Positions 37,317 through 60,557 of a stretch of 64,000 nucleotides of DNA are shown here, in pieces. The notes under the pieces are model-generated. The model was not told where the DNA came from. It searched no databases and saw only the letters and a program-made list of their open reading frames with translations. How positions within the stretch are numbered: position 1 is the stretch's first letter; every line of letters starts with the position of its first letter. Both the position numbers and the translations under genes were made by a program. The stretch is taken from assembly GCA_963811165.1 (NCBI GenBank), contig CAWEQH010000004.1, positions 320,001 through 384,000 on the forward strand. Reading direction: 5' to 3'. Origin of the DNA: an uncultured Nitrospiraceae bacterium (GTDB taxonomy: Bacteria; Nitrospirota; Thermodesulfovibrionia; Thermodesulfovibrionales; UBA6898).

Positions 37317-37499
37317 AGAATAACTAATTGCGATACCCCAGATTCGGGAAACCCTGAGCTTTTTTATAATATGGGTGCTTCGATAGATGCTTCAGGCTTC
37401 CTCTTTCGAGGCATGCTCACCACATCCAACTCCCGCTCCCTAAACTCAGTAGCTTGATCCTCTGGTTTACCCGCCCGGGGTAACGCAAGCTCTCTTTCT
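37317..37499 (-). ncRNA. ssrS: 6S RNA (copy B)
   Basis: ~183-nt rod: closing stem TTGCG-TACCCC-CGGG-AAACC pairs with GGTTT-CCCG-GGGGTA-CGCAA; central bubble; GGGAGC...GCACCCA; distal TGGTGAGCATG-CCTC-GAAA-GAGG-AAGCCT, which resembles E. coli 6S as I recall it. Confidence 0.8.
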
Positions 37500-37505
37500 A
37501 ATTTC

Positions 37506-37534
37506 ATTGTAGCTCGCTATTATGGATTCGTCAA
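37506..37534 (-). promoter_or_regulatory. Sigma70 promoter of 6S RNA copy B
   Basis: TTGACG-N17-TACAAT, about 7 nt upstream of the RNA 5' end. Confidence 0.75.
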
Positions 37535-37739
37535 GAACGAAATCGGCCAGGCAGTATCTCTAAACTGAGACACAACTATAGGCCATGGGCCATATAGAGA
37601 ATCCAGTGTTTTCAGGGACTTTTGAATTTGTCTCGCCAAAAGATGAGGCTCATATTGATTTTGCGTGAATATTGAGATATGTTTATAAAGGACGGTTTTG
37701 ATTTGCTGTTAATCGCACCTTAAAAGAAGGAGGGAAATC

Positions 37740-37928
37740 ATGGAATTAAACGAAGTAAAGCGCATCGCAGCCAAGCGCGGGATAAAAACGGGGAAGATGA
37801 AAAAAGAAGAGATAATCCGGTCGATCCAGCGGGCCGAAGGGAACTTCGACTGCTTCGGTTCTGCCATTTCCGGGGAATGCTCCCAGACAAACTGCCTTTG
37901 GAGAAAAGACTGCCTGATGAAAGTCTAG
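37740..37928 (+). CDS. SAP/Rho-N-like small protein with four C-terminal Cys
   Basis: KKEEIIRSIQRAEGNFDCF...C....CLWRKDC; RBS AGGAGG. Confidence 0.85.
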   Translation: MELNEVKRIAAKRGIKTGKMKKEEIIRSIQRAEGNFDCFGSAISGECSQTNCLWRKDCLMKV

Positions 37929-38024
37929 CCTTGGCGGCCTTCCTAACTTTTCCATCGCCTCGACAGCACCGATTTGCGCCTCATTATTTTCGGATGCGGA
38001 CCGAAATAAACAATAGGAGAGCAG

Positions 38025-39389
38025 ATGAAGATACGGTCTATTAATCCTTATACCGAAGAGGTCATGAAAGAATTCGACCTCATGACACCAGACGAGGTAG
38101 ACGGAGAAATCGGCAGATCCCGCCGTGCCTTCCTTGCATGGAGGGAAGTACCTGTTTCGGTACGAGCTGAATATGTCGGGAAGTTAGGAGACCATCTGAG
38201 GTCTGAGAAACTCAGGTACGCCGGGACCATCACCTCTGAAATGGGCAAACCCATCAGGGAGTCGGCTTCCGAGATCGAAAAGTGTGCGTGGCTCTGCGAT
38301 TACTACGCTTCGGGAGGGGAGAAACTCCTGGAGCCCGAGCAGATTAAAACCGAGGCGAGGAAAAGCTACGTCCTGTTTCAGCCTCTGGGCATCGTGCTTG
38401 CCGTTATGCCATGGAACTTTCCTTTCTGGCAGGCGTTCCGTTTCGGCATCCCTGCGATCACCGCCGGAAATGTCGTTGTTCTCAAGCATGCATCAAATGT
38501 CCCAATGTCGGCGCTGGCGATTGAGGAGGCGTTTAGGAAGGCCGGGTTTCCCGAAAACATCTTTAAGACCTTTCTCATCCAGCCCCAGGACGCCCTGAGG
38601 CTCATCGATGACGACAAGGTCGATGCAGTATCTTTGACGGGCAGCAATAAAGCGGGGGAGGAAGTCGGGGGCCTGGCAGGCAAGAAAATAAAGAAGCTTG
38701 TCCTTGAACTTGGCGGCTCGGATCCGTTTATCGTCTTAGACGATGCAGACATTGAAAAGGCGGGCAGGACAGCGGCAAACGCCCGGATGATCAATGCCGG
38801 TCAGAGCTGTATCGCGGCAAAGCGCTTCATAGTTATGGAGAAGGTGGGCGAGGAATTCAAGGAGGTCTTTATCGGCCGGTTGAAGGAACTGAAGATCGGC
38901 GACCCGATGGATGAAACCACCGATGTCGGCCCTGTTGCCAAGAAGGAGATTCTCGATTCCCTGCATGAGCAGCTCCGGGATGCGAAGGCGAAGGGCGCTG
39001 AAATCTTACAAATGGAGCATACGTTAAGGAAAGGGCTCTTCTTCCCGCCTTGTGCCGTTTTTAATCCGACTCGGGATATGAAGATCCTGACCGAGGAAGT
39101 CTTCGGCCCCATAGCTCCGATCATCACCGTAAGAGACGAGGACGAAGCAGTCAGGACGGCAAACGACACGCCGTACGGCCTGGGCGCTTCGATCTGGAGC
39201 CGAAACCTGAGACGGGCCGAACGGCTCGCCGCAAGAATTGAAGCGGGGTGCATCGCGGTAAACGATATGGTGAAGTCGGACCCTAGACTCCCCTTCGGGG
39301 GGGTAAAGAAATCGGGGGTCGGCAGGGAACTGTCGCACTACGGGCTGAAGGAATTTGTGAACATCAAAACTGTGGTGGTAAGAGAGTGA
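38025..39389 (+). CDS. NAD(P)-dependent succinate-semialdehyde dehydrogenase family
   Basis: [39 protein letters not shown]. Confidence 0.93.
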
Positions 39390-39490
39390 ACCCTAACTGC
39401 ATAAGATGCCGAAGGGAGAAGCTGAAAAAGCCTTGAATGACGGCATGATTTTTTCTTCTTTATTTTATGCAAGTGTGAGGTTGGGCCGGC

Positions 39491-41113
39491 ATGAAGGCGT
39501 CTGATCTTTTGGTGAAGTGCTTAGAGAATGAGGGAGTTGAGTACGTATTCGGCCTGCCGGGCGAAGAGACGCTGGATCTTATGGAGTCACTGAGGACCTC
39601 TACGATACGTTTTGTCCTGACCCGCCATGAGCAGGCTGCCGCATTCATGGCGGACGCCTACGGCCGCTTTACCGGCAAGCCCGGCGTCTGTATCTCCACC
39701 CTTGGTCCTGGTGCCACAAACCTTCTTACGGGGGTGGCTGATGCCTTTTTGGACAAGTCTCCGCTCGTTGCGATAACAGGACAAGCCGACCTCAAAAGGA
39801 TACATAAAGAATCGCATCAGTACATAGATATCGTCGAGATTTACAAGAGCGTGACCAAGTGGAACGGCAGGATAGATTCACCCGATGTAATCCCCGAAAT
39901 GGTGCGCAAGGCTTTTAAGGTTTCGGCAACGGAAAAACCGGGTTCAGTGCACCTGGAGCTTCCCGAAAACGTGGCCGCCATGGAGGTCGGAGAAATGTAC
40001 CAGACTATGATCGCGCCCATCCGCCCCAGAAGAAGTTCACCCGACAGGCAGTCCCTAAGGAAGGCGGCGGAGCTTATCGAACAGGCACGGTTCCCGGTCA
40101 TACTCGCAGGACACGGTGTTGTCCGGAAGTCTGCCGGCAACCGGCTCCAAACATTCGCGGAACTATTCTGTATCCCGGTCGTGACGACTTTTATGGGCAA
40201 GGGCGGAATAACGGCGGAAAGCCACTGCTCGATCGGGACCCTCGGACTCGCACAGGACAGACAGATCGCCGATGTTTTTTCGAAGGCAGACCTCATCATC
40301 GCCATCGGCTACGACCTTGTCGAGTATGCACCCGGGAACTGGAACCCGAAGCTCGATAAAAAAATCATCCACATCGACTTTACCACGAGCGAGGTCGATC
40401 TCCACTATGTGCCGGAAATCGAGATCATCTCAGACATCAGGGAAACCCTTGAACTGATGGAAGGGGTTATGAGCACGAACAAAAAGAGCGAGTGCCTTAT
40501 CTCGATGAGACGTGAATTCGTCGAGGGCTTTGAGAGGGGGGGTGCGGACAGTTCTTGGCCGCCGCGGCCGCCCCGGATTATCTACGGGATACGGAGGGTC
40601 CTCGGGCCGGACGATATCCTTATATCCGATGTGGGCTCCTGTAAGTTCTGGGCCGCAAAATTTTATCCCGTTTACCGCAACAACACCTTTATCCTTTCAA
40701 ACGGGTTCGCTTCCATGGGGTTTTCTCTCCCTTCGGCAATCGTTGCAAAACTCGTCTATCCGGAGAGGAACGTTGTGGCCCTCTGCGGGGACGGCGGCTT
40801 CCTGATGAATCTGCAGGATTTGGAAACGGCATGCAGGCTCGGGCTTAATATCGTCATCGTCATCTTTAACGACAGCGGATACAACCTCATCAAGTGGAAG
40901 TCGGAAAAGAAATTCGGGACCTCCTTCGGTGTCGACTTTTCCAATCCTGATTTTGTCGGGCTCGCCGGAAGCTTTGGCGCCGTCGGCATCAAACTGGAAT
41001 CCTCCAGGGAATTTCAAGACGTGCTCCGGGATGCGTTAACGAAGAGCGTGCCCGTCATAATCGATGTCCCGATAGATTACAGCGATAACGATATGATCTA
41101 CAGGCTTTTGTAA
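39491..41113 (+). CDS. Acetolactate synthase large subunit family TPP enzyme
   Basis: FGLPGEE, RHEQAAAFMA, GDGGF...N (TPP motif). Confidence 0.92.
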   Translation: MKASDLLVKCLENEGVEYVFGLPGEETLDLMESLRTSTIRFVLTRHEQAAAFMADAYGRFTGKPGVCISTLGPGATNLLTGVADAFLDKSPLVAITGQADLKRIHKESHQYIDIVEIYKSVTKWNGRIDSPDVIPEMVRKAFKVSATEKPGSVHLELPENVAAMEVGEMYQTMIAPIRPRRSSPDRQSLRKAAELIEQARFPVILAGHGVVRKSAGNRLQTFAELFCIPVVTTFMGKGGITAESHCSIGTLGLAQDRQIADVFSKADLIIAIGYDLVEYAPGNWNPKLDKKIIHIDFTTSEVDLHYVPEIEIISDIRETLELMEGVMSTNKKSECLISMRREFVEGFERGGADSSWPPRPPRIIYGIRRVLGPDDILISDVGSCKFWAAKFYPVYRNNTFILSNGFASMGFSLPSAIVAKLVYPERNVVALCGDGGFLMNLQDLETACRLGLNIVIVIFNDSGYNLIKWKSEKKFGTSFGVDFSNPDFVGLAGSFGAVGIKLESSREFQDVLRDALTKSVPVIIDVPIDYSDNDMIYRLL

Positions 41114-41210
41114 AATTCTGGTAAGGGACGCGCAGGGAAAACGTGAAAAACGTGATGAATTGGTCCTCACACGCATCATCAAATGGAACCAACGCAGGTG
41201 CAGTGAGCTG

Positions 41211-42752
41211 CTAATGCACTGCCAAGGTACTGCTGATAAACTGCGACACATCACGCTTCAGTTGGGAAATAGAGCCGCCGTCCAAATACATCATATGCCC
41301 TGACCGGTATCTGTGTGTCGTGACGTTGGTCCTGAGAGTCGGTGTCAACCCCAGATGTGACAAGGTATACTCCGTCGCAAAATAAGGAGTTGCCAGGTCG
41401 AAGCAGCCCGACGCGATGAACAGTTTCATGTAAGGGTTTTTGGCAAAGGTGTTCCGTAAGTTATCACCGACATCGGCATAGCTGTTTTTTGCCTCCCAGT
41501 TCCACTGCCCGATGCCGCCGCCCAAAGTGAAGTACTCCAAATCAGTCTTAAACCCGAGTTCACCACGGACATAGTCGTTGAACGTAGCCGTGAAGGGCGG
41601 CCGGATTGTCGCGATTGTCGGGTCAAAATTGGAAGGCCCCGCCGGATTGAGGTTCAAAGCGGTAAAACGACTGTCCATGTATCCGACCACGCGCCCCTGC
41701 TTCCGGAGAAGCTCATTGACAAAACTTCCACGATCGATGCGCAGGTTTCGGTCATCGATAAAGGCCTTGTCAAGCCCGGTAAATTCCGCCAGCTTTTCCG
41801 CTACCTTCTCGCGCTCCCCGGAAGACAGTCGGTCCCCCTTGCCGAGGGCCGTTACATAACCGGTTTCCGCCCAAACCTCTGCTGCTTCCAGGGTCTTGTC
41901 CAGGTCGGTTTGCGGCGCAAGTTTTTTGTGATACCAGGCCGTCGCAGTGTAGCTGGGGAGGAACAAAACATACGGGAGGTCGTTGCCGCGATCAAAAGAG
42001 GTGGTCTCCAGGTTCATTATGGAAGAGATCATGATAATACCGTTTAGGGCGATGCCATGCTCAACCAGATACTCCGACAGGCCGGCGGCACGGAACGTCC
42101 CATAGCTTTCCCCAACCAAAAAAAGCGGTGAACTCCAACGCTCATACTGTGTCAGATAAAGCCTTACAAATCCGCCCACCGAATCTATATCGCCCGACAC
42201 CGAGGCAAACTTCTTGGTAAGTTCCGGCTTGACTGCCCGGCTATAGCCCGTGCCGACCGGGTCTATAAAGACCAGGTCGGCCTTATCCAGCCAGGTGAAC
42301 TCATTGTCCGCCAGCACGTACGGTGGCGGCGGCATACTGCCGTCTGCGCGCATTTGGACACGCCGGGGACCGACGGCACCGAGGTGGAGCCAGACGGCTG
42401 AAGCACCGGGTCCACCGTTAAATACGAACAAAAGAGGCCTCTTACTGCCGAAAGCTGAGTTGTCGCCTACCGTGTAAGCAATAAAAAAGATCTGTGCCTC
42501 AGTTTCGCCGGCATTATTCATTATCGGCAGTTGGCCTGCCGTTGCGGTGTAGCTTATTTCCCCTCCCTCCAGGGTCACCTTGTGTTCGGTGACCGAAGGT
42601 TTTGCCATGGGGACTTCATACTTACTCTTTACCGGCTGTTTTTCCCCGGCCTTGTCCTTATCGGCAACAATAACGGTCTCCGTAGCCGTCGGCGACGGAG
42701 GGTGGGGTGTATCGGCCATCAACGCTGCCGCCAGCAGTATGGATAAAAACAA
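41211..42752 (-). CDS. Serine carboxypeptidase (peptidase S10)
   Basis: FNGGPGAS, DPVGTGYS, GESYG, GHMMY; signal peptide. Confidence 0.93.
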   Translation of the reverse strand: MFLSILLAAALMADTPHPPSPTATETVIVADKDKAGEKQPVKSKYEVPMAKPSVTEHKVTLEGGEISYTATAGQLPIMNNAGETEAQIFFIAYTVGDNSAFGSKRPLLFVFNGGPGASAVWLHLGAVGPRRVQMRADGSMPPPPYVLADNEFTWLDKADLVFIDPVGTGYSRAVKPELTKKFASVSGDIDSVGGFVRLYLTQYERWSSPLFLVGESYGTFRAAGLSEYLVEHGIALNGIIMISSIMNLETTSFDRGNDLPYVLFLPSYTATAWYHKKLAPQTDLDKTLEAAEVWAETGYVTALGKGDRLSSGEREKVAEKLAEFTGLDKAFIDDRNLRIDRGSFVNELLRKQGRVVGYMDSRFTALNLNPAGPSNFDPTIATIRPPFTATFNDYVRGELGFKTDLEYFTLGGGIGQWNWEAKNSYADVGDNLRNTFAKNPYMKLFIASGCFDLATPYFATEYTLSHLGLTPTLRTNVTTHRYRSGHMMYLDGGSISQLKRDVSQFISSTLAVH

Positions 42753-42934
42753 AATCGCGACCTCCTGCAGTCGAAAGTAAACCTAATTAACATCTTACCA
42801 CACTTGTGTCGCGGCGCTTGATAGGGCCTTTTTATCTGAAGGACTGTATTGGGAGTGTTTTTACCGCGGCCTTCTTCCAGACAACCTCATCTGTTGATAT
42901 CTTAGCGGTAAAAAATGCGCTATAATTTATGTAG

Positions 42935-45490
42935 ATGAATCTGTTCCGGACATTGGAACGCGTAAAAACCTGGCATTTCTTTCTTGCCGCGGTACTATTT
43001 TCAGAATTCTTTACCTTCCTTCTTAATTCACTTCAGAGTATCTTTCGATGGGGCATGGTTTCAAGGGAACTCGTCGAGATCGGCGCCATTGACGCCGTCT
43101 TCGTGTCCATCATGGTAACTTGTATCCTGGTCCCTCTCCTTAGATACTCGACAAAGATCGTGCTTGAAAGAGAAGTGCTGCAAAAAGAGATCGCTGAGCG
43201 TAAGCAGAGGGAATTGGCACTGAGGGAAAGCGAGGAGTCCTATCGGGTGCTGTTTAATCAGGACCCCCTGCCCGGGTGGGTATACGACGCGCAGACCTAC
43301 AGATTTCTCCTCGTCAACAATGCAGCCCTGAAACATTACGGCTATACTTCGGAAGAATTTCTTTCGATGACCATCAAGGACATTCGACCGTCAGAGGAAA
43401 TCGACAGACTCTTGAAATTCTCATCCGAAATCAGGGACCTCCCGGCTGCTTCCCGTTTTTGGCGGCACAGGAAGAAGGACGGGACCCTGATCGATGTCGA
43501 GATCAGCTCGCACCCCATATTGTTTGACGGAAAGAAGGCACGGCGCGTCATAGTCCATGACGTCACCGAGCGCAAGAGGCTGCAAAACGAGGTGTCGCTG
43601 CGGGAGCAGCGGCTGAATTCATTTTTCAAGGGTGCAACGGCGGGGCTGGCGCTATTTGACAGGGACTTGAGGTTTATACGGATCAACGATACGCTGGCCG
43701 GGATGAACGGGTTCCCTGCCGAAGAACATATCGGCAGGACGGTCCGTGAAATCCTGCCGGAGCTTGCCCCGGTAATCGAGCCGATATTTCAGCGGGTGCT
43801 TAGCACCGGTGAACCGGTCCTTGACATGGAAGTGGCCGGTGAAACGCCGAGCAATCCGGGCGTCCAGCGACATTGGCTGGAGTCATTCTTTCCGGTTGTT
43901 GACGCGGGCGGGGCCCTGGACGGCGTCGGGACGATCGTTGTCGAAATTACGAGGCATAAGCGTGCGGAAGAGGCGCTGCTGGAGAGCGAGCGCAGGTATA
44001 AGAGCCTCATTGAAACGACCGTAGACGGCATATATAGGAGCGATGCCGACGGCTTTTTCCGGTTTATAAACCAGGCGGGCGCCGAGATGTTCGGCCACAA
44101 GTCTCCGGCGGAAATGATCGGCAAGACAGTGCTGGAGTATTGGGTCGATCCTAAAGATAGAGTTTCGTTTCTTGACGAGTTGAAACGCGAAAAGAGACTG
44201 AGGGCCTACGCCGTCAGGGGGAGAAAAAAGGACGGTTCTGTTATACATCTGGAGATATCGAGTCATGTCCTTGAGGATGGACAGGGCCGTTTTATGGGGG
44301 TGGAAGGGATACTGCGCGATGTGACCGAAAAAACGAATCTCGAGGCCCAGCTCCGTCATGCCCAGAAGATGGAGGCCGTCGGGCAACTGGCCGGCGGCGT
44401 AGCGCATGATTTCAATAACATCCTTTCGGCCATAATCGGTTTCAGCGCCCTCGGGGAGATGAAGCTTCCCCACGACCATCCGGTCAGGCACTATATGCAG
44501 CAAATACTTCAGTCCTCAGAGCGCGCGGCGGCCCTGACCCAGAGTCTGCTCGCCTTCAGCAGGAAGCAACCGCTCAGGTTGGAGCTTTTGGGGATCAACG
44601 AGGTAATCGGCAGATTCGAGAAATTCCTCATCAGGCTGCTGCGGGAGGATATCGAGCTGGTCATACACCATGCAGACGAGGAGCTGACAGTCTTGGTCGA
44701 CCGGGGGCAGATCGAGCAGGTGGTCATGAACCTCGTGACGAATGCTCGGGATGCCATGCCGAACAAGGGCAGACTGAGTATAGCGACCATGCACGTTGTC
44801 CTCGGTGAGGACTTTGTGAAGGTGCACGGCTATGGGCGGACGGGCGATTTCGCGGTAATATCGGTGACGGATTCCGGCGTCGGCATGGACGAGAAGACGC
44901 GCCGGAAGATCTTCGAGCCCTTTTTTACTACGAAGGAGGTCGGGAAAGGGACGGGTCTTGGGCTGGCGACCGTGTACGGCATCGTCAAATCGCATGACGG
45001 TTTTATCAACGTATACTCGGAGCCGGGCAGGGGGACCAGCTTCAAGGTCTATCTGCCGGTCGCTCATTCTGCCGAGGGCGTGAAGGCGCCGGCGGTGCGG
45101 CGGCCGAAGGAGCTTCAGGGGGGTACCGAGACTATCCTGCTAGCGGAGGATGATGCGGCCCTTCTCACCATGACCTCAATTGTTCTTAGAGAAATGGGCT
45201 ATACCGTGATCGGGGCAGCCGACGGAAATGAAGCGGTCAATAAATTCATCGAGCACCAGGACTCCATCAGGCTGGTCATCCTCGACGGCATCATGCCAGG
45301 CAAGAATGGAAAAGAGGTCTACAATGAAGTCACGGCCTTATGTCCTGATACGCGCTGTCTTTTCATAAGCGGGTATGCCGAAGACATTTTCACGAAGGAC
45401 GGGATACAGCAGGATGAAGTTACTTTCCTGACAAAGCCTATCACACCGTCGGTGCTTCTGAAAAAAGTCCGCGAGGTGCTGGATAGGTGA
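42935..45490 (+). CDS. Multi-PAS hybrid sensor histidine kinase
   Basis: Two TMs, three PAS domains, AHDFNN H-box, FFTTK, GTGLGL, C-terminal receiver. Confidence 0.95.
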   Translation: MNLFRTLERVKTWHFFLAAVLFSEFFTFLLNSLQSIFRWGMVSRELVEIGAIDAVFVSIMVTCILVPLLRYSTKIVLEREVLQKEIAERKQRELALRESEESYRVLFNQDPLPGWVYDAQTYRFLLVNNAALKHYGYTSEEFLSMTIKDIRPSEEIDRLLKFSSEIRDLPAASRFWRHRKKDGTLIDVEISSHPILFDGKKARRVIVHDVTERKRLQNEVSLREQRLNSFFKGATAGLALFDRDLRFIRINDTLAGMNGFPAEEHIGRTVREILPELAPVIEPIFQRVLSTGEPVLDMEVAGETPSNPGVQRHWLESFFPVVDAGGALDGVGTIVVEITRHKRAEEALLESERRYKSLIETTVDGIYRSDADGFFRFINQAGAEMFGHKSPAEMIGKTVLEYWVDPKDRVSFLDELKREKRLRAYAVRGRKKDGSVIHLEISSHVLEDGQGRFMGVEGILRDVTEKTNLEAQLRHAQKMEAVGQLAGGVAHDFNNILSAIIGFSALGEMKLPHDHPVRHYMQQILQSSERAAALTQSLLAFSRKQPLRLELLGINEVIGRFEKFLIRLLREDIELVIHHADEELTVLVDRGQIEQVVMNLVTNARDAMPNKGRLSIATMHVVLGEDFVKVHGYGRTGDFAVISVTDSGVGMDEKTRRKIFEPFFTTKEVGKGTGLGLATVYGIVKSHDGFINVYSEPGRGTSFKVYLPVAHSAEGVKAPAVRRPKELQGGTETILLAEDDAALLTMTSIVLREMGYTVIGAADGNEAVNKFIEHQDSIRLVILDGIMPGKNGKEVYNEVTALCPDTRCLFISGYAEDIFTKDGIQQDEVTFLTKPITPSVLLKKVREVLDR

Positions 45491-45610
45491 GCCCCAGGGG
45501 CGGCCTGCCTGAGTAAGGCACAGGGACGTTGCTTTCGAAGCGATGACGGATGAGGAACAGCACTCTGCAATAGGTCAGATACGTTTCTTATTTCCTGAGG
45601 GTTTCTCCAT

Positions 45611-46261
45611 TTACCGCCCCTTCTTGCCGCGGCCCCGTAGTCGTTTCTGCAGTTCCTCAACCCTCTCTCTGGCTTCTCTCTCTTTTTCATCCGCGGGTTC
45701 GGTCCAGGGCTGGGTTACCCGCCAGGTTATCGCGCCATTTAAAGGCGGTTCAGGGTAGGGTCCGATATTTTTTTCCTGACAGCAGGCAAGGACGGCATTC
45801 TTCAGCAGTGCCGGGTCTCCCTGGTATTGGAGGTCGATTAAGGTAATCTGTTTCCGGAAACGGTTAATGTATTCCACGGGCAAGTTCAACAATAGCGGAA
45901 CAGGGGCGTTTGTCCCTAAAATACGTCTGCGGTCATCGAGTCCGTTAAGAAGAAAGGCCTTCAGTGCTTCTCCTGTCAGGTGGCCTTCCGATTCCGGTCC
46001 CCCGATAACCAGGTAGCGGATGTTGGGGTTCGACACGACATTGCAGACTATTTTCTCTATTCCGATATTTTCAGTCTGCACCATTCCTGAAAGGGCGGCC
46101 CCACCATCTATTCCGTTCTGAACGAGTTCCTGAAGTTCATGGGGTATCTTATAGTCCGGGGCATTTAGGATAATAGCTACGGCAACGGGAGAAAAGTCAT
46201 TGCCACGCATGTAACGGCCTTCCTCGGGAGGATACCCCGAAGACGGATTAACTTTTAGCAT
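45611..46261 (-). CDS. mtrA: Tetrahydromethanopterin S-methyltransferase subunit A homologue (orphan)
   Basis: QTENIGIEKIVCNVVSNPNIRYL, ESEGHLTGE, FRKQI. Confidence 0.8.
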   Translation of the reverse strand: MLKVNPSSGYPPEEGRYMRGNDFSPVAVAIILNAPDYKIPHELQELVQNGIDGGAALSGMVQTENIGIEKIVCNVVSNPNIRYLVIGGPESEGHLTGEALKAFLLNGLDDRRRILGTNAPVPLLLNLPVEYINRFRKQITLIDLQYQGDPALLKNAVLACCQEKNIGPYPEPPLNGAITWRVTQPWTEPADEKEREARERVEELQKRLRGRGKKGR

Positions 46262-50339: not shown

Positions 50340-50358
50340 TGGCCTAGAGACTATTGCC

Positions 50359-51429: not shown

Positions 51430-51846
51430 AGAAAATGGACAAGTGAGAGCCTCATTCAGGAGCTGATCATCATGACTGGAACCGAGACAGTGTATGGCGG
51501 GGAAGATTGAAAAATGGCTTATTTACACGAGAAGACGTCGAGTGCCTCTGATGGCAATTCTGCCATTCGTAGTTCTCTGTCCTTCTTGACAGAGGTTATA
51601 GGGTGTCAGGAAGGAATCACTAGTTCTACCGACCCTGAGAGGATGACGCTTATGAAATATCCGATGGCGAAAGGGTACCATTCTATTTATATCAACGTGC
51701 GCTGCAATTATTTCCAAAAGAATCCCACACCAATGTCAAAGATCCGACGACGTCGAGTACAGGAAGAAGCCAAAAAACTAATCGAAACCTGCGGAGCAAG
51801 ACATCACTCCTTATGGCCAGAAGAGTACGAGGCGTAACACGATATT

Positions 51847-52062
51847 CTAGAAGTCGTCCATGTACTCCCACATCTCGTTCTGATGCAACCAGATAGGGTC
51901 CGCATTCCTCCGGATGAACTCATCCACATCCATGCCGTCAATGGTTGGCGGTCGCTTGACGCGTTTCTGCTTTCCATTGATGAAGATGGTCATATATTCT
52001 TTCCGTCTCCGCCGTTTTTCAGCTTTCTCGGCAGCGGTCAGTTGTCGCTTTTGTTTTCCCAT
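51847..52062 (-). CDS. Small basic hypothetical protein
   Basis: FINGKQKRV...FIRRNADPIWLHQNEMWE; protein-like composition. Confidence 0.7.
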   Translation of the reverse strand: MGKQKRQLTAAEKAEKRRRRKEYMTIFINGKQKRVKRPPTIDGMDVDEFIRRNADPIWLHQNEMWEYMDDF

Positions 52063-52094
52063 AACAACGAAGAAAGAGGCACCTATAATCTCCT

Positions 52095-52277
52095 CTATTT
52101 CGGGATATAGGCATTCAATCCGATCGTAAGAGGTTTTCCATTTACTGTCAGAGCGGTTTTCATATTGCCCCTGGTGCTGGCGACCACAAGAGTTTTCCCT
52201 GATGAACTCGGCACAGGCTCTTCAAGATCGCAGGTAATAATGAGCTTGCTCCCTTCGATTTTTGCTTCAATTGCCAT
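52095..52277 (-). CDS. Small hypothetical protein
   Basis: PSSSGKTLVVASTRGN...GLNAY; RBS AGGAGG. Confidence 0.75.
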   Translation of the reverse strand: MAIEAKIEGSKLIITCDLEEPVPSSSGKTLVVASTRGNMKTALTVNGKPLTIGLNAYIPK

Positions 52278-52342
52278 GATGTTTTACCTCCTGAGGATAA
52301 TATTTGCTTGTCCGCGTCAACGGGGATTCCGGCCAGGAGGTC

Positions 52343-52775
52343 TTAAGTCCCTGACCTGAAGCCCCTCCTCATCATGCGTCCTTTCCAAAGAGGCATGCCG
52401 GAAGAATCCCTGAACGGCGTGATCTTCCCAGTCGAGAGATTTTTGAGACGGCTCGCGACGATATAGATATTTCCATCACGGGCGATATATTTCGACCCCG
52501 TTACTTCGTAGGATATTCCGGACCTGAACTCAATGCCTTCCCTGTCGATGTACCACGGCGGTGCGGTGACGACTCTATAATCCTTGACTCCGGACTTGAA
52601 GAATGACAATCACCGGACCTCTCAATTCCCTCGTAACTTCCCTAAACGTCCCTTTTATCGTTACCTCGGTATTTTCGTCGTACCCTTCTCCGCCCTCGCT
52701 TTCCGCATACGCGGCAGAAAAGAGAAAAACTATTAAAAAAGAAGCCAGCAAACCTCTCATCGTGTAATTCTTCAT
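52343..52775 (-). pseudogene. Exported OB-fold-like protein (homologue of 28836..29288), frameshifted near 52600
   Basis: YDENTEVTIKG in one frame; APPWY, EVTGSK and RDSSGMPLW in another. Confidence 0.7.
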
Positions 52776-52879
52776 GCTATCTCTAATAATACCTGATTTT
52801 AATCCTCCGTTTTGTTTTTTAACGCAGATGCGGCGAGGACACATTGCATGTACGCTCTGTGTCCTCCTTTTGTTTCCTG

Positions 52880-53278
52880 CTAAAACCCGCCCATTCTGCC
52901 CATGCGTCCGAAGCCATATCCGCAAGCACCGCATCCGCCGCCAAAGCCGCTTTCAGTTCTCCTTTTCTGTATCTCGGTCCTTACGTCAACCATCTCCTTC
53001 TGTTTGGCTGAAATAGCCTCCCAGTCCGTGGGCGTCTGTGCCCGCAGCGTCATCAGTTCCGCCCTGCGTTGAAGCATCTGCTGCTTCAGCGGCAGGATGT
53101 CGGTTTGAAACTTGCCGAACTCCTGGGACTGTTCAGGCGTAAAGGTACCTGTCGCCCCTGGGCATATCCCGTAACCCGCGCCCATTCCCCGGCCATAGCC
53201 AGGGCCGAAAGCAAAGGCTGCAGTGACGACTACCGCCACCATGGCGACTACTACACCAGCAATAAGACCTTTTTTCAT
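52880..53278 (-). CDS. ZraP/Spy/CpxP-like periplasmic protein
   Basis: Signal peptide, GPGYGRGMG, TPEQ, helical core, Gly-rich tail. Confidence 0.8.
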   Translation of the reverse strand: MKKGLIAGVVVAMVAVVVTAAFAFGPGYGRGMGAGYGICPGATGTFTPEQSQEFGKFQTDILPLKQQMLQRRAELMTLRAQTPTDWEAISAKQKEMVDVRTEIQKRRTESGFGGGCGACGYGFGRMGRMGGF

Positions 53279-53324
53279 GTTGATCACCCCTTTCTGTGGT
53301 CAATTTCATCCTGACCTTAGTAAG

Positions 53325-53340
53325 AGCAATGACCATGCCG
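53325..53340 (-). promoter_or_regulatory. Sigma54 (-24/-12) promoter
   Basis: CGGCATGGTCATTGCT, i.e. GG-N10-GC. Confidence 0.75.
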
Positions 53341-53394
53341 GAATAAAACATGCTGATTTATTGAGTTTTTTATAACAAAGGCATCTACTTGTCT

Positions 53395-53428
53395 GCAAAT
53401 ATTGCGCTAAATTGGGTGCAATATTTGC
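53395..53428. promoter_or_regulatory. Putative enhancer (upstream activator sites)
   Basis: Perfect inverted repeat GCAAATATTGC-N12-GCAATATTTGC upstream of the sigma54 promoter. Confidence 0.65.
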
Positions 53429-53437
53429 GTCACGACA

Positions 53438-54769
53438 TCATGTCATGCCGTATTCCTTAATCTTGTAGTGAAGAGACCTTAGAGATATGCCGAGCATCTC
53501 AGCCGCCCTCTTTCTGTTCCCACCAGCCTGTGAAAGGGCATTCTTTATCGCTTCTTTTTCGATGGCCTTCAAATCCCTACCGATCATTTGCTTGGGACCT
53601 GGTTCAGAAATATGACCTACGCCGGAGATTTGCAACTCCGGGCCTTTACTCACAATGATGGCACGCTCAATGACATTTTCCAGTTCGCGTATGTTACCCG
53701 GCCAAGGATATTCCATCATCTCTTTCATGGCCCCGGAGGGAATGGCCTTCGTCTCCCTTCCGATCCTTCTTGAGATAGTGTCGACGAGATAATGAGTAAT
53801 ATTTTCAAAATGCGCCTTGCGTTCTCTCAACGGCGGAACCGAGATGGGGAAGACGTTCAAACGATAAAAAAGGTCTTCCCTGAACTTCTCTTCCCGTACC
53901 ATCTGCTTCAGATCCCTATTCGTTGCCGCGATAATCCGTGCATTTGTTTTAATCGTAGTGAGTGAACCGAGTCGTTCAAAGGTTCTTTCTTGAATGATCC
54001 TTAGGAGCTTAGCCTGCAGGGTCAGGCTCATCTCCGATAATTCGTCAAGCAGTATAGTGCCGTCATTGGCAAGCTCAAATTTGCCCTTTTTCTGGGCCAT
54101 GGCGCCTGTGAATGCGCCCTTTTCATGACCGAAGAGCTCCGACTCGAGCAGGGTTTCAGGAATGGCGGCACAGTTGATATCCACGAAGGGTCCCCGTCTT
54201 CCGCTCAGGCGATGCAGGATCTTTGCCACAAGCGTCTTGCCTGTTCCCGTTTCGCCGTAAAGCATAACCGTAGCATCCGTCTGAGCAACATCCTTTACCT
54301 CTTTTAACACGCTGTCCATTCCTGCAAACACGATATCGAGGGAAGGAATATCTTGAAAAAGTGCCGATTTCAGGAGGGCATTCTCGCTGAGGAGAGCCTG
54401 ATGCTCAAAGACTTTGGCCACCGCAATCCTAAGCTGATCAGGGTCTTTGAGGGGCTTGGTAATGTAGTCCACAGCGCCTTTTTTCATAGCTGTGACCGCT
54501 GTCTCGACAGTGGCAAAGGCAGTAACCATGATGAAATCGACTTCGCTTCTTCTTCTGACCTCTTCCATGAATCGGATGCCGTCCATCTTCGGCATTTTCA
54601 AATCAGAAATGATCAGATTGGGATCGAAGGAATCCAGGAATTTCAATGCGTCTTCGGGATCAGAGCGTCCTTTGACTGTATATCCCTCACCCTCAAGAAT
54701 TTTTGTCATCAGGAGAAGAAAGGATTTCTCATCATCCACAATAAGTATCCTGAAATTCTCTTTATTCAT
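53438..54769 (-). CDS. Sigma54-dependent response regulator (NtrC/ZraR family)
   Basis: Receiver domain, GETGTGK, GAFTGA, WPGNIREL, Fis HTH. Confidence 0.96.
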   Translation of the reverse strand: MNKENFRILIVDDEKSFLLLMTKILEGEGYTVKGRSDPEDALKFLDSFDPNLIISDLKMPKMDGIRFMEEVRRRSEVDFIMVTAFATVETAVTAMKKGAVDYITKPLKDPDQLRIAVAKVFEHQALLSENALLKSALFQDIPSLDIVFAGMDSVLKEVKDVAQTDATVMLYGETGTGKTLVAKILHRLSGRRGPFVDINCAAIPETLLESELFGHEKGAFTGAMAQKKGKFELANDGTILLDELSEMSLTLQAKLLRIIQERTFERLGSLTTIKTNARIIAATNRDLKQMVREEKFREDLFYRLNVFPISVPPLRERKAHFENITHYLVDTISRRIGRETKAIPSGAMKEMMEYPWPGNIRELENVIERAIIVSKGPELQISGVGHISEPGPKQMIGRDLKAIEKEAIKNALSQAGGNRKRAAEMLGISLRSLHYKIKEYGMT

Positions 54770-56048
54770 ATCGGCCCTTATTCAGTACCACGGGCAGCTC
54801 TATCCTGAAAACCGCTCCATTGGCTGGTTTGCTCTCGAGTCTTATGCGCCCTCCAAGAACCTTTGTGAGCTTGTCGACGATCGCAAGCCCCAGGCCCGTT
54901 CCTTTCGCCTTCGTAGTAAAAAATGAGGTGAAAGCCATGGACTTCGTCTTTTCGTCCATGCCGCACCCGTTATCGCTAATTATTATAATGATTTTATCTC
55001 CCGCCTGTTGTGCAGCAAGTTCGATAAGGCCCCCCTCATTCACCGCATCGGCAGCGTTCTGGAGTATGTTGGAAAGTATCTGCTTCAACTTTTCCCTGTC
55101 CGATACAATCATCGTGTCCACAGGGATTGTTGTATTGACCGTTATGACGGTCTTTTTCACTCGGTCCGATTCTTCTAATACTTTTACCGATTCATTAACC
55201 AACTCACGCAGACTGAATTCTTCTATCCTGACTTCTGAAGGTTTCGCATACAGAAGCAGTTCCTCCGTCAAACGTTCGAGTCTTCTTGCTTCATCAACAA
55301 TAACACCGAGCTCTTCTTTGCCTGTCTCACTTTTTTCCGTAAGATACTGGGCGAAGCCCTTGATACTCCCGAGAGGATTCCTGATTTCATGAGCAAGAAC
55401 TGCCGCCATTTCTCCGATAACGGCAAGTCGCTCTCTTTCCGCCATCATCGCAGTGAGTTTGTCGGACCGCCTCAATGCCTTGATAAAGAAAAAAACCATG
55501 CCCCACAGGACGACGACTGTGATAAAGATACTTATGGCCTGGAGCCTGGCCTGCCGCGTAATGTTCTGTGCTGGATAGGGATGAAGGGCAAGTCTCAGGA
55601 CCTTGACCGAATCCGGCGTATGTATCGGATAATTGAGAATGAAGATCTCCTCGCCGGTCCCAAGAGTCATGCGGCCGAATACCGGCTTTCCCTCTCCAGC
55701 GGAACGTTTGATGTCCGGCGAATCAATGCGTCGTCCCACCAGATTTTTATTGGAGTGAAGAAGGGTCAGCCCGCTCTTGTCATAGAGCGCGATAAAGGCA
55801 ATGCCCTCCCAGGACGAATCTGCGACAATCTCCTTAAAGATGCCTTCTTTTAAATGTGCCTCCTGCAAGGAAGGTTCGAGACTCACCGCCATGCCCAGTG
55901 CCTCAAGCTTAAGGGATTCTTCTGCCGCCTTAAGTGAATTCCGGTAGATGATAAAAGTGCTAAGCAGCGTCGTAAAGGATGCGACTGCTATAATAATGAT
56001 GAAATAAATATGGGTTTTCTTAGGTCTCTTTTCTCCTGCGTCGGACAT
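54762..56048 (-). CDS. Sensor histidine kinase (ZraS-like)
   Basis: Two TMs, AHEIRNPL, FFTTK, GTGLGL. Confidence 0.94.
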   Translation of the reverse strand: MSDAGEKRPKKTHIYFIIIIAVASFTTLLSTFIIYRNSLKAAEESLKLEALGMAVSLEPSLQEAHLKEGIFKEIVADSSWEGIAFIALYDKSGLTLLHSNKNLVGRRIDSPDIKRSAGEGKPVFGRMTLGTGEEIFILNYPIHTPDSVKVLRLALHPYPAQNITRQARLQAISIFITVVVLWGMVFFFIKALRRSDKLTAMMAERERLAVIGEMAAVLAHEIRNPLGSIKGFAQYLTEKSETGKEELGVIVDEARRLERLTEELLLYAKPSEVRIEEFSLRELVNESVKVLEESDRVKKTVITVNTTIPVDTMIVSDREKLKQILSNILQNAADAVNEGGLIELAAQQAGDKIIIIISDNGCGMDEKTKSMAFTSFFTTKAKGTGLGLAIVDKLTKVLGGRIRLESKPANGAVFRIELPVVLNKGRYE

Positions 56049-56248
56049 ATATTTGAATTATAGACCAAAAAGTTCAATTTGACTCAAGCCGCCTCTTGCT
56101 CTCCGAATAGAGACAAAAATTCTGGCAACTGGCGATAAATTGAACGCGCCAAACGTTGCCATGGTCTCATTTAATCGACTCCAGTTCCCTCACCCCTTAA
56201 ACGACTCCAGCGCCTCCTTAATGACACGCATCCGGACAGCCCATATAC

Positions 56249-56941
56249 CTACTGCAGCGAAGCGCCGGTCTCATTTGTTTCAGTGCAAAGACCGGCCTTC
56301 TTTGCTTCTTTTAAATGTTCGCAATTCCCGAATTTACAAGCTTGTTTCCAGTCCGAACACGCCAACTCCGCATGGAGACTCCCCCGGATGTCATACACTG
56401 CGGCGCTGCCCGATTGGATCTGGAGCGACCTGTTAAGGTCCAAAAGAGCAAGGTCGAATTGCCCTCTTATGGCATAAGTAATCCCACGATTGTATAAGAC
56501 CTTTGAAGCGTTGGGATCTATACCGAGGGACTTTGTGAAATCGGCGATGGCAAGGTCGTATTGGCCCTTCTTTGAGTAAGTAATTCCCCTATTATTGTAT
56601 GTCTCCGCGGACATTGGAGCGATGTCGAGCGCTTTATTGAATTCTGAAAGGGCGAGATCGTATTGGCCTTTTTCCGAATAGGCAACGCCCCGTTCATTGC
56701 AGCCTTTAGCTTCAAGGACGTCCCGGTCGAGTGCCCCATCGATGTCGCGTGCCGAATCAAGCATCGGTTTCTGAGAAGTTTCGCCGAGGGATGCAACTTC
56801 AACAGGCGTCCCGAAGGTCTTCATGTTTGCCTCTTGCGCAGAACTGCTTGCCGAGCCTATCGATAACAGTATGGCCTGCAACAAAATAACGCAGAGTATG
56901 TTTCTGCGCATTATACTTTGCGTGAGCTGACACTTATGCAT
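56249..56941 (-). CDS. Exported TPR protein
   Basis: YNNRGITY..KGQYDLAIADF repeats. Confidence 0.85.
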   Translation of the reverse strand: MHKCQLTQSIMRRNILCVILLQAILLSIGSASSSAQEANMKTFGTPVEVASLGETSQKPMLDSARDIDGALDRDVLEAKGCNERGVAYSEKGQYDLALSEFNKALDIAPMSAETYNNRGITYSKKGQYDLAIADFTKSLGIDPNASKVLYNRGITYAIRGQFDLALLDLNRSLQIQSGSAAVYDIRGSLHAELACSDWKQACKFGNCEHLKEAKKAGLCTETNETGASLQ

Positions 56942-57290
56942 AGTAAGAACTCCTTTTGCGGATCTCTACAGCAGGGGGCTTCGCATATATGTCCCCGCAA
57001 TTTATCAAGCGGTAAACACCTCGTCGCAACCGGAGGGCACTGGCCTGACGAGGCGTTTATCGCAGCGCCTCAACGGCGCATTCATTAATTTCTTATATGG
57101 CAAGACGATGAATGCAAGTAGTCGGTTACAATATTTCCCCCTTACCGGTGGGGAAAATAATTCTTCAGGACAAACATGATTCGAAAATATTTTCTGCTGT
57201 TACCGCCTTTCGTATATGAGTTGAGATGCTCTTAGCAACTCCAAAGGCTGAAACAAGCATTCGGTTGCATTTTTTTCGGGACTGCACCGA

Positions 57291-57509
57291 TTATGAAGAA
57301 ACGTCATTTGCTGCATGAAACACCCTCTTTCTCAGGGGATAGTTAGCCATCGCCATATCGTTTTCGTAGAGATATTCCGATAGGGTAGGGCAGAGTCTGA
57401 AGGTCTTCTTAAAACAGTATGTTTCCATCCTCTCAATGCTTGGAACATACCTTGATTCCGATGCACTGCAGGTTCCGATGTAGCCTTCGTCAAAGTAGGG
57501 GCAGCTCAT
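57291..57509 (-). CDS. Cys4 mini-protein (MSCPYF family, copy 2)
   Basis: True start is ATG 57509 after GGAGG; C-x10-C-x17-C-x7-C. Confidence 0.85.
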   Translation of the reverse strand: MSCPYFDEGYIGTCSASESRYVPSIERMETYCFKKTFRLCPTLSEYLYENDMAMANYPLRKRVFHAANDVSS

Positions 57510-57564
57510 ACGTACCTCCCGTAAAACTGAATTGAAAATGATCTTATGGCGAAATAGTAACATC

Positions 57565-57592
57565 CAATTATGAACATAATTTGAATTTGTGA
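57565..57592 (-). promoter_or_regulatory. Conserved upstream motif of MSCPYF copy 2
   Basis: 28/28 identity with 32344-32371. Confidence 0.8.
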
Positions 57593-57661
57593 ACGGGATA
57601 AGGGAAACTTTCGATTAAATCTATTTAACCTGATGCGGGTGGGCACACTCGACCCGTCCTC

Positions 57662-58630
57662 TCAACTTCGAAACGCCTCCATCGCCTCCTTAACGACCGC
57701 ATCCGGACAGTCCGTGTATCTGGGTGAGATATGCGACACAAAAAGGTTTTTCACCCCGGCATCCTTCGCGATAAGTCCGCATGTCTTTGCGGTAAGATGG
57801 GACCTTTCTTTTGCCCGCTCCCTGTCTTTATCGAGGAAATAGGCTTCACAATAAAAGGCGTGGGAGCCCCTCGCAAGTTCCGAAAGACGGGCGATATTCT
57901 TTACGGTTGCGGCAACGTCGGTGGCGAACGTGATCTTCTGCCCCTCCGTGATGTGAGCGATATCCCAGAGCCTGTCCATGCGGTAATGTTTCCCCGATAT
58001 CTCCACGGTGCTTTCAGCGGGTGCATTTCTTCTCAGTGCCTTCTTAAATTCACTGAGCCACGGGCCTACCTCCAGGTCCTTTCTCATCAGACGGTCTTTG
58101 TCGATATTAATATGGGACTCTTCCTCGATCGAATATGCCAGACACGGGGTGCCGTGCGACAGCCTCGCCGCCTTTACCCGAAACAGGGGGTCTTCAAGCA
58201 GTGTTCCGTCCGAAACCGACTCCGAGACATCCTCCCGCTTGAACCCGTCATGCGCCTTAAAAGCGGAATGGGCCAGGAACTTGCCGTCATAGGCAAAAAC
58301 GTGTATCTCAAGCGGGTAGTCCCTGATGAGGTTCCATGTGTATCCTCTTAGCTTGCCTGCGACGCAGCGCGTAATGTTTCGGGGGCCGTATATATTTAAC
58401 GGGATTTCCCTTCTCAGGACGGCCCGTAAGAGGGAGTCGAACCCGATGAAGTGGTCGATATGGGTATGGGTCACGAAGACATCGGTGATCTTGTAAATCT
58501 CAGACGGGGCCAGCCCGCTTATGTCCCCCAAATCGAATTGCACGGCCCGTTTTTCCCTTAGTATCCTGATAAAGAGGGCGGGGTCTCCGAAGAGGTCGTT
58601 TATCAGTCTATACCGGAATATCGGTTCCAT
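57662..58630 (-). CDS. Ribonuclease Z-like metallo-beta-lactamase
   Basis: THTHIDH, CEAYF, SHLT and SHISPRY motifs. Confidence 0.85.
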   Translation of the reverse strand: MEPIFRYRLINDLFGDPALFIRILREKRAVQFDLGDISGLAPSEIYKITDVFVTHTHIDHFIGFDSLLRAVLRREIPLNIYGPRNITRCVAGKLRGYTWNLIRDYPLEIHVFAYDGKFLAHSAFKAHDGFKREDVSESVSDGTLLEDPLFRVKAARLSHGTPCLAYSIEEESHINIDKDRLMRKDLEVGPWLSEFKKALRRNAPAESTVEISGKHYRMDRLWDIAHITEGQKITFATDVAATVKNIARLSELARGSHAFYCEAYFLDKDRERAKERSHLTAKTCGLIAKDAGVKNLFVSHISPRYTDCPDAVVKEAMEAFRS

Positions 58631-58687
58631 AAGTAATTATAGAGTATTATGTGTACAATATCGGACGTTTCGGCTGTGTTAAGAGTT

Positions 58688-59079
58688 TCATATAATACCT
58701 CCTCCCAACCCGATAGCAATTCCAAAAACCATTACTGATACAATAATCTGTATTGTACGCATAGTGACCTTCTTGACCAACCGATTCCCTAAGAATGCTC
58801 CCAAGAATGCGGAGACGACAGCCGCAGGCAAAAGGAAACTGCTGTTGCCGATACCTGCCGGCGAAAAGTGGTACTGTAGATGAGTAGTCTCGAAAAATCC
58901 ACCAAACAGGCTATGACAACACCCGTTGCAACAAATCGTTCTTTAGATGACCCGCTTCTGATGAGAAATGCACTGCGCAAAGCCCCCTGATGTCCCGAAA
59001 GTCCACCGAAAAAACCACTCAATATCCCGCCAAGCGGCAGATACTTTTTTTCAAACGATATTTTTTCAAATGTCGGCAA
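58688..59079 (-). pseudogene. TauE/SafE (TSUP) family transporter, 5'-truncated and frameshifted
   Basis: [24 protein letters not shown]-terminus SAFLGAFLGNRL...GGGII* lies in another frame. Confidence 0.75.
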
Positions 59080-59306
59080 ACATCTCTAAGGCAGCAGCAG
59101 GAAAGGCTCTGGATTCTTTTGTTGACGGCATCAAGAAGACCCTGAAGAAAGGCAACAAGGTAACGCTGGTAGGATTTGGAACCTTCTCAGTTGCAAAAAG
59201 GGCTGCACGGAAGGGTAGGAATCCCAGGACGGGAGAAGTAATCAGAATAAAGGCTTCCAAGTCTCCTAAATTCAAGGCTGGGAAGACATTCAAGGACGCT
59301 ATCTAA
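59070..59306 (+). pseudogene. hup: HU DNA-binding protein lacking its first helix
   Basis: [34 protein letters not shown]; the usual MNK.ELI... start is missing. Confidence 0.8.
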
Positions 59307-59316
59307 GATCCTTCCG

Positions 59317-59727
59317 ATGCATTGGGATTTTACGCCTGAAGATGTCCTGAACGGTAAAGCTCATTATAACGTTGCCCAATTCAGGGATGATCTGCTCAAG
59401 GAAATAAGGGAAACAGTAGGACAACACCGAGACGGGGAGAAATTTACCAAGTTCTATTCCATCATAACTGTCATGCTTCTGACATCCCTTGCTCTCGGTA
59501 AATCCACGGATGGCTTTGTTGCCTCCGTGCAGAAATATTTTCCAAGTAAGGAACTGCAACAACAACTTACGAAACGTGAACTGCTAGACCAGATACAGGA
59601 TACCAACAAGGAAAACATTGAAATGCTGAAGGCTGTCATTCGCAGACGTATTCAGGATGATACAGCTATCGGGATTGAATCTAGCTGCGTTACCAAAACC
59701 ATTACATCGGAGCTGATGACGTTTTAA
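59317..59727 (+). CDS. Hypothetical protein
   Basis: 136-aa ORF, no recognised motif. Confidence 0.55.
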   Translation: MHWDFTPEDVLNGKAHYNVAQFRDDLLKEIRETVGQHRDGEKFTKFYSIITVMLLTSLALGKSTDGFVASVQKYFPSKELQQQLTKRELLDQIQDTNKENIEMLKAVIRRRIQDDTAIGIESSCVTKTITSELMTF

Positions 59728-60112
59728 GTAATACTTTGCCTGAAAGAAGGTCTAGTTGTTGACCATTCTTTAAAAGTAATTCTGCTTTTGTTATATGCCA
59801 ATTCCTCTTTTCTGTATTTAATTCTAAAAAGGCTTTACCATCATGATTCGATCCGTGAACAACAAAAGTAAACTTTGCTTTCCCTTCAGCGCTGCGATTA
59901 TTATGCACCTCAAAACTATCAAAAGCGGCCAATGCTATTTTTTGAGGTTTACCCACATTATCTTTCACCCTGCTGTTATTCATTAAAAATTGTATTGAAA
60001 ATAGATATGGTTCTGATCGTAAAACCATGAAGCGGCTGTAAAGTTGAAGCAATGTAAACGTAACAATGACTATGAGAAGAACAATGCTTCCTTTGCGAGA
60101 TAATATTTTCAT
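59702..60112 (-). CDS. Membrane-anchored hypothetical protein (Coa1-like)
   Basis: N-terminal TM, SEPY, V...VG.P, G.A.F...V.G pattern. Confidence 0.6.
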   Translation of the reverse strand: MKILSRKGSIVLLIVIVTFTLLQLYSRFMVLRSEPYLFSIQFLMNNSRVKDNVGKPQKIALAAFDSFEVHNNRSAEGKAKFTFVVHGSNHDGKAFLELNTEKRNWHITKAELLLKNGQQLDLLSGKVLLKTSSAPM

Positions 60113-60164
60113 AATTCCTTCAGGGGTATGATACCAAATTGTTTAGCCGCTGGGTTGCAAAACA

Positions 60165-60216
60165 CTCAAAATATTCTCAAAATATTCTTGACATCCTTCC
60201 AGGAAAGGAATATAAA
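60165..60216 (+). promoter_or_regulatory. Sigma70 promoter with tandem 11-bp direct repeats abutting the -35
   Basis: CTCAAAATATT x2 (60165-60186), then TTGACA-N17-TATAAA (60188-60216). Confidence 0.75.
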
Positions 60217-60222
60217 TAAATT

Positions 60223-60386
60223 GAAGGCAGACTTCACCAAGTGGTGGTTTTGCTCTTCTCAGTTCAGCATTAAAGGTTTAGGACTGAAGAACGTTATGCC
60301 TGGATGAAGAAAAGTTCTGGCAAATGTTCACAAGGTGCTTAAACCGCTGGGCAAGGGAAGAAGCAAACACCACTTTTAAGCAGAAG
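60223..60386 (+). ncRNA. Rod-shaped structured leader upstream of 6S RNA copy A (unknown)
   Basis: Six nested helices between 60239 and 60375; no long ORF; starts at the predicted TSS. Confidence 0.6.
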
Positions 60387-60557
60387 GAAGTCAATGCCTT
60401 GGAATGGGTTAAGGCTTAGAACTAAGTCAATTGGTTAGGAAGCGGGAGCAAGATGTGGTGAGCAAGCCCCCAGCAGCAAGGGGGAAGCCTAAAGCATCTG
60501 CCGAAGCATCCACTAAAAAAGACTCTAAGGATACCCAGCACCAAGGTGTTGTACTTC
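60387..60557 (+). ncRNA. ssrS: 6S RNA (copy A)
   Basis: Closing stem GAAGT-CAATGCCTTGG-TGGGT pairs with ACCCA-CCAAGGTGTTG-ACTTC, followed by T8; distal domain homologous to copy B with compensatory changes. Confidence 0.75.

Follow-up and report, generated by a model that had tools for sequence, protein, structure and literature searches.

The bacterial 6S RNA ties up RNA polymerase (RNAP) by imitating an open promoter. Its family (SsrS; Rfam family RF00013) is defined by a rod of approximately 170–180 nucleotides (nt) with a central bubble, a closing stem and an apical arm (PMC8876501; PMC4227106), and work on Bacillus subtilis and Escherichia coli describes how the RNA binds the sigma70-type holoenzyme and is released by product-RNA synthesis (PMC3923129; PMC8876501; PMC11077062; PMC4211561). 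The 6S-1 and 6S-2 RNAs of B. subtilis and the 6S1 and 6S2 RNAs of Legionella pneumophila are distant siblings within one genome and have separate promoters (PMC4211561; PMC3923129), and the tandem ssrSA–ssrSB of the Bacillus cereus group places two structured RNAs behind one promoter, the second having none of its own (PMC7726162). Further papers describe one or two 6S copies (PMC8414754; PMC8998176; PMC4227106). Here we report on a 64,000-nt stretch of DNA (the window; positions 320,001 to 384,000 of contig CAWEQH010000004.1, hereafter C4) from an uncultured Nitrospiraceae bacterium of the class Thermodesulfovibrionia, in which two 6S-like RNA genes lie 23 kb apart: copy B on the minus strand (37317..37495) and copy A on the plus strand (60388..60556).

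In our reading, A and B are accessory members of a set of four 6S RNA genes in this genome. They are predicted to serve as open-promoter decoys for the sigma70-type polymerase, and each is likely to be co-transcribed with a separate partner RNA under its own control; judged from sequence and by analogy, this reading has a probability of roughly three in four. Both loci match the 6S family, form a rod with a central bubble, pair in a compensatory fashion, carry a conserved apical arm, belong to a clade apart from the canonical copies and have a conserved placement of promoters and terminators.

6S RNA copies in the genome and its relatives

An original prediction, made from the letters of the window, had described A and B as homologous 6S-like RNAs with compensatory base changes, and covariance model, fold and covariation agree that both are genes of the 6S family. 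The core strings that it quoted are found exactly, at 37440–37372 (minus) for B and 60438–60512 (plus) for A, and the two copies are indeed homologous, being 76% identical over 78 nt (E 3e-9 against their own genome) and 60% identical end to end (104 of 173 columns). The covariance search that it had proposed matched both loci, though under the RF00013 gathering score of 46.4 bits: copy A scored 40.4 bits over its full length (E 1e-4), and copy B 32.3 bits over model positions 59–132 only (E 0.009), with close relatives of the B type exceeding the gathering score at 46.7 and 54.7 bits. Both copies fold into a rod of 6S size with a closing stem, a central bubble and an apical stem (z scores of −4.6 for A and −2.6 for B), and none of 200 shuffles was equally stable in either case.

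The pairing is borne out by an alignment of 46 accessory sequences, in which 94.2% of the cells pair, compared to 35–45% in controls with a slid partner strand. Compensatory changes occur in all six helices, and 16 of the 30 pairs change on both sides, a figure that 0 of 500 shuffles reached, albeit with a shuffle that ignores kinship. The co-variations singled out at the outset are real, as exemplified by alignment columns 71/146, where A-U replaces G-C in 6 of the 46 sequences; the closing stems have diverged and still pair as had been claimed, but they do not differ entirely, since they can be aligned and contain compensatory changes in helices 1 and 2. Conservation is highest in the apical arm and in a motif of the 5′ bubble strand. 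The apical-arm motifs of A and B, which correspond to the −35-like region, match the Rfam consensus and are invariant columns across the 46 sequences, and the bubble motif (purine-A-Y-Y-R-A) is present in 43 of them. Product-RNA synthesis begins at the 5′ bubble strand in B. subtilis (PMC8876501), and by analogy the conserved pyrimidine pair of this A-rich motif may be the start site of the product RNA.

The picture of two copies was right about both and yet incomplete. The genome (G000; 95.4% complete, with a contamination estimate of 1.7%; its contigs are labelled C1, C4, C8 and C10) holds four RF00013 matches, namely A, B, a third accessory copy on C8 (41.6 bits) and a canonical copy on C10 (77.2 bits). 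Neither A nor B is the housekeeping copy; that role belongs to the canonical one on C10, which precedes rarA, the RNase Y gene (rny) and a TIGR00282 gene and clusters with each relative's best copy. Copy A is 88% identical to the C8 copy, and each accessory copy is 50–53% identical to the canonical one. In a tree of 92 rows, which has no outgroup root and from which we claim no order of events, the 24 canonical rows form a clade (support 99/98), as do the 13 A-type rows (100/100) inside a 40-row group of A and B types, the support of the latter group (93/97) lying under the tool's star threshold. The 23-kb spacing of A and B is incidental: in three genomes of the same genus a distance of 0.5–0.7 kb separates the B-type copy from the RNase Z-like gene, against 20 kb here.

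Multiple copies recur in relatives. At least two matches are found in 18 of the 24 other genomes of the family, a few of the extra ones being weak or partial, and, with RF00013, in 12 of 42 genomes within the class compared to 4 of 109 outside it. We further surveyed 151 genomes of the class with a clade model (R2) built from the 46 accessory sequences, with copy B itself (172 bits) as a training member; 122 genomes matched, 62 of them with at least two and 24 with at least three matches, and the maximum was five in one relative. These counts are lower bounds, because the clade model misses the canonical copy of G000. The core pattern common to A and B occurs at at least 118 loci in a collection of species genomes; among the 80 titles listed most belong to Nitrospirota/Thermodesulfovibrionales, some to 'Candidatus Sulfobium' and a minority to Legionella and other Gammaproteobacteria. 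Five Legionella loci (L083, L089, L084, L105 and L149; L-numbers denote loci of relatives) share the accessory core pattern, two of them in one species, and form a separate clade in the tree.

A further arrangement was encountered in 25 genomes of the class, where a 6S gene lies on the same strand 40–150 nt before the 16S start, within the rRNA leader (97 of the 151 genomes had a 16S start; loci L037, L038, L042, L068, L078, L088, L123 and L288–L295). The Rfam 6S model matched 13 of the 13 leader loci scanned, nine of them above the cut-off, and the other leader of six two-operon genomes, on inspection, contains no 6S. In G000, neither of the two 16S starts is preceded by a leader 6S; a short hairpin approximately 60–110 nt before the 16S start at C1:200544 resembles the closing stem of a leader 6S without its interior and is possibly a relic, and similar short stems occur in L264 and L265.

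The putative partner RNAs T and R

Copy B is preceded by a sigma70-type promoter-like site (37506..37534, minus strand; −35 at 37534, −10 ending at 37506, 17-nt spacer, 10 of 12 matches), and the same motif lies 105–114 nt before the core anchor in 22 of 22 B-type loci, among 31 loci examined, against a background of 1.4% of random 80-nt windows. Directly behind copy B follows T, a conserved 83-nt 3′ hairpin with a U-rich tail (37235..37318, minus strand; z −7.5; 34.4 bits with the T model, R3), which abuts the 3′ end of a convergent homoserine dehydrogenase gene. T measures approximately 110 nt in most relatives, where its closing stem is near-invariant and the U-rich tail recurs, and all B-type copies inspected run on into it. 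Since a run of five U is absent between 6S and T in 60 of 61 loci and 58 of the 61 have a U-rich tail behind T, copy B would be produced as a 6S+T transcript of approximately 265 nt.

The T model matched 52 of the 151 class genomes, and 57 of 70 sense hits lie directly 3′ of a 6S model match (the coordinates were paired by eye). The other 13 comprise seven behind a 6S-like rod that we call D type, two behind another rod, one with a promoter-like site of its own, and three that are either cut off or preceded by a 6S remnant. No family was matched by T in an Rfam search. From its anatomy we would guess that T is a 3′ terminator combined with a stabilising or processing domain, able to stand alone.

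Several arrangements around T deserve mention in their own right. The D-type rods (L279–L282 and L284–L286) keep the B-type closing stem, have a shorter, rewritten apical arm and are each followed by T; they score 26–48 bits with the clade model, and the six that were tested gave no Rfam match. The other rod, of approximately 130 nt (L277:727-876 and L278:719-863), occurs in two genomes of the family, where it has a promoter-like site to itself and precedes the second copy of T; it matches neither Rfam nor the 6S clade model. Neither rod type was found in G000. A short T-like stem directly precedes the rRNA-leader 6S at L078:1020-1072 and L123:383-435 (19.9 bits, E 0.015).

The assertion that each copy has a sigma70 promoter of its own holds for B and fails for A, as a promoter scan found none directly upstream of the latter. 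The closest promoter-like site (60188..60216, plus strand; TTGACA, 17 nt, TATAAA) lies approximately 170 nt upstream; a strict scan missed it, and it is the sole candidate promoter for the unit formed by copy A and the uncatalogued rod in between. This rod, R, is a predicted small RNA of 141 nt with a tail of four U (60238..60378, plus strand; z −6.0 and −7.2), and copy A is itself followed by a U tract extending to approximately 60565. The promoter-like site is conserved at the C8 copy and in three genomes of relatives (G004, G006 and G024). R is located 8–12 nt before 6S in 8 of 13 A-type loci; in three it lies 75–471 nt upstream, with a separate TTGACA ahead of 6S, and in two no R occurs in the upstream DNA covered. 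The 10 nt after R contain 3–6 U in the six tandem loci scored versus 6–9 in the 24 stand-alone loci scored, a comparison that leaves out two tandem loci and one stand-alone locus that were not parsed. Because the U tract of R is shorter where a 6S follows, which weakens the terminator, copy A may be produced by read-through from the R promoter, as a transcript of approximately 345 nt.

R occurs in four copies in G000 (in the window and at C8:608661, C1:108069 and C1:12183), the three further ones each behind a TTGACA site. The R model matched 16 of the 151 class genomes, all within the order, and beyond the order none was found in 151 genomes of the phylum. Eighteen R homologues in other genomes stand alone; TTGACA lies upstream in 18 of 18, the closing stem is conserved and a U tract is present. 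In the interior a self-complementary 12-nt core is matched up to seven times, at a spacing of approximately 14–15 nt. For R, both partners differ in 22 of the 41 pairs, a figure that 0 of 500 shuffles reached, in an alignment that was fitted to the model and in which 2 of 29 rows are antisense hits.

RNAs of the CsrB/Rsm type are sponges for CsrA/RsmA with repeated GGA motifs in hairpin loops. R resembles them in being multi-copy and stand-alone and in its variable number of short repeats, some with GGA, and differs in that its repeats form a single rod by pairing beneath a long closing stem and that it has no Rfam match in the loci scanned. A CsrB-like identity was rejected, as CsrA does not track R: a search for PF02599 gave no match in 6 of 11 genomes with R (83–100% complete), G000 included. 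GGA is present in 20 of 48 repeat matches, AGA or UGA in over half, and predicted folds bury most GGA in the rod. R is also not a degenerate 6S, matching neither RF00013 nor the clade model at E up to 10, and the bacterial signal recognition particle (SRP) RNA (RF00169) was discarded as an identity for R or T since a normal SRP RNA at C4:575712 (65.7 bits) is the sole match. Our guess from anatomy is that R may be an independent, multi-copy, protein-titrating small RNA built of a repeated self-complementary 14–15-nt unit, whose partner is probably not CsrA.

Behind copy A lies a gene of UXX-star selenoprotein family 1 (60603..60812, plus strand; NF041114, 110 bits at a cut-off of 72) with two in-frame TGA codons, a third TGA probably being the stop; at C8, R and the 6S copy are separated by a paralogue. 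Three UXX-star selenoprotein-like genes occur in G000, this one and those at C8:608401-608652 and C10:1115809-1116026. A Coa1-like gene (PF08695; 59702-60112, minus strand) has an 89% duplicate at C4:48149-48537, and a Coa1-like gene also lies upstream of an R copy in a further relative, G002. Divergent from copy B is a 62-residue basic open reading frame with four cysteines (37740-37928, plus strand), which matched neither Pfam nor NCBIfam at the thresholds applied. Elsewhere, a sub-threshold match to the cspA thermoregulator covers a probable cold-shock gene (33409-33828), and beyond the window a multi-copy repeat of approximately 130 nt is present at C4:417253-417387 and on several contigs.

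A proposed polymerase decoy and its alternatives

Size, rod, bubble, closing stem and apical-arm consensus motifs are those of the described 6S RNAs, and by analogy each copy would bind the sigma70-type holoenzyme as an open-promoter decoy and be released by the synthesis of a short product RNA. The simplest purpose of several copies would be to supply one decoy activity at different times or in different doses, as with 6S-1 and 6S-2 of B. subtilis, and separate promoters and partners would give separate timing. The arrangement differs from that family in its scores below the gathering cut-off, in the three accessory copies beside the canonical one and in the genomic fusion of each to a partner without an Rfam family. 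Like the ssrSA–ssrSB tandem of the B. cereus group it places two structured RNAs behind one promoter, the second without its own (PMC7726162), but the partner here is not a 6S, as neither R nor T matches a 6S model; cleavage may separate the RNAs of a unit, as has been suggested for the co-transcribed Bacillus pair.

A number of observations weigh against this account. The scores of A, B and the C8 copy lie under the Rfam gathering threshold, that of B being earned over the apical arm alone; the predicted folds partly close the central bubble; the shuffle control for covariation is blind to relatedness; the consensus structure of T from a plain alignment has just 11 pairs and the T of the window is a shortened form; the R of the window has no clean match to the repeat unit, compared to up to seven in relatives; and copy A, located in an island that looks foreign, could be a passenger.

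A bolder version would see a modular toolkit of housekeeping, A, B and D types and an rRNA-leader copy, aimed at different sigma70 holoenzymes and steered by R, as a protein sponge made of repeats, and by T, both as novel families of co-transcribed RNA, with the A unit travelling on islands together with a selenoprotein gene. The five sigma factors with region 1.2 make one class per holoenzyme possible, and we regard the toolkit in this full form as unlikely.

It is also unlikely that the paralogues are specialised, each 6S class binding a different sigma70 holoenzyme. G000 offers five sigma70 region-1.2 matches and eight region-2 matches, at least two occur in 121 of the 151 class genomes, and the D type keeps the B-type closing stem and T with the −35-mimicking apical arm shortened and rewritten. 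However, both B. subtilis siblings bind the same holoenzyme (PMC3923129), and the apical motifs of A and B are the same as the Rfam consensus. Across the 151 genomes, in which kin are not independent, the count of sigma factors is related to that of 6S matches only weakly (Spearman 0.16, p 0.05; the 122 genomes that have a match give 0.09), and a rule of one 6S per sigma factor was discarded. The region-1.2 genes of G000 are located at C10:667244, C1:206089, C8:220131, C1:549217 and C1:631530; at C1:205600-206298 sigma regions 1.2 and 2 fall in different open frames, a possible frameshift.

It is improbable that the accessory copies keep the 6S fold and have no polymerase role, whether as two-domain 6S+T and R+6S RNAs with another job or, in the case of the A type, as passengers of mobile DNA. 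This would fit the sub-threshold scores, the tight linkage of accessory 6S to partners, the patchy presence of R and the surroundings of copy A. The RNase Z-like gene (57662..58630, minus strand; NF002558 above cut-off) marks the native left border of an island. At the 59.08-kb junction an HU-family gene truncated at its 5′ end (59076..59306, plus strand; profile positions 12/13–89 only, the first ~12 residues missing) meets a frameshifted, 5′-truncated membrane-protein gene, presumably sulfite-exporter-like, and the GC content falls from 0.49 to 0.41. The tetranucleotide deviation is in approximately the top 1% from C4:379000 and mostly in the top 1–2% on to approximately C4:392000, delimiting an island of some 13 kb that contains a multi-copy element, by its looks presumably an IS3 transposase; the region of the C8 copy is mildly atypical (94.5th percentile). 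A passenger role is countered by the most conserved portion being the apical arm and bubble edge of 6S, and by partners that are interchangeable and also found alone. In addition, an exact-pattern search of viral contigs for R and for the accessory 6S core returned no match, nor did a search of plasmids.

The original prediction had warned that copy A lies beyond this junction and might come from another genome; the junction is real, and the concern of a chimera is largely answered. The genes that flank the island, the RNase Z-like one and a gene at C4:392762 that we take to be galT-like, are neighbours in two relatives (G001 and G005). As native gene order brackets the 13-kb island that carries copy A, the island is better seen as an insertion into native DNA, and a join to another genome is unlikely. 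A misassembly that joined copy A from another organism would suit the two truncated genes back to back and the shifts in GC and tetranucleotide composition, but is very improbable given the native order that resumes after approximately 13 kb, the C8 copy that is 88% identical to A, the presence of both A- and B-type copies in each of G004 and G006 and the contamination estimate of 1.7%.

Implications for 6S RNA biology

Sibling 6S RNAs are already known, and this four-copy repertoire was not found in the literature searched. The search returned nothing on 6S copies in Thermodesulfovibrionia, on R, on T or on 6S in an rRNA leader; it did not cover the broad surveys (Wehner 2014; Barrick 2005) and supplements, which could bear on novelty. 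Compared to the pairs of B. subtilis and L. pneumophila, there are four copies here, up to five model matches in a relative, and several classes. Counts of 6S copies are probably too low, given that the majority of accessory copies score below the Rfam cut-off and that the D type escapes it. R and T are each a candidate for a new RNA family.

Almost all work on the reason for which bacteria maintain several 6S RNAs concerns a single pair. With four copies in one genome, several classes and five primary-type sigma factors, a division of labour by timing or by holoenzyme becomes directly testable, and the four copies with their partners point to a richer toolkit of polymerase control than the usual one or two copies.

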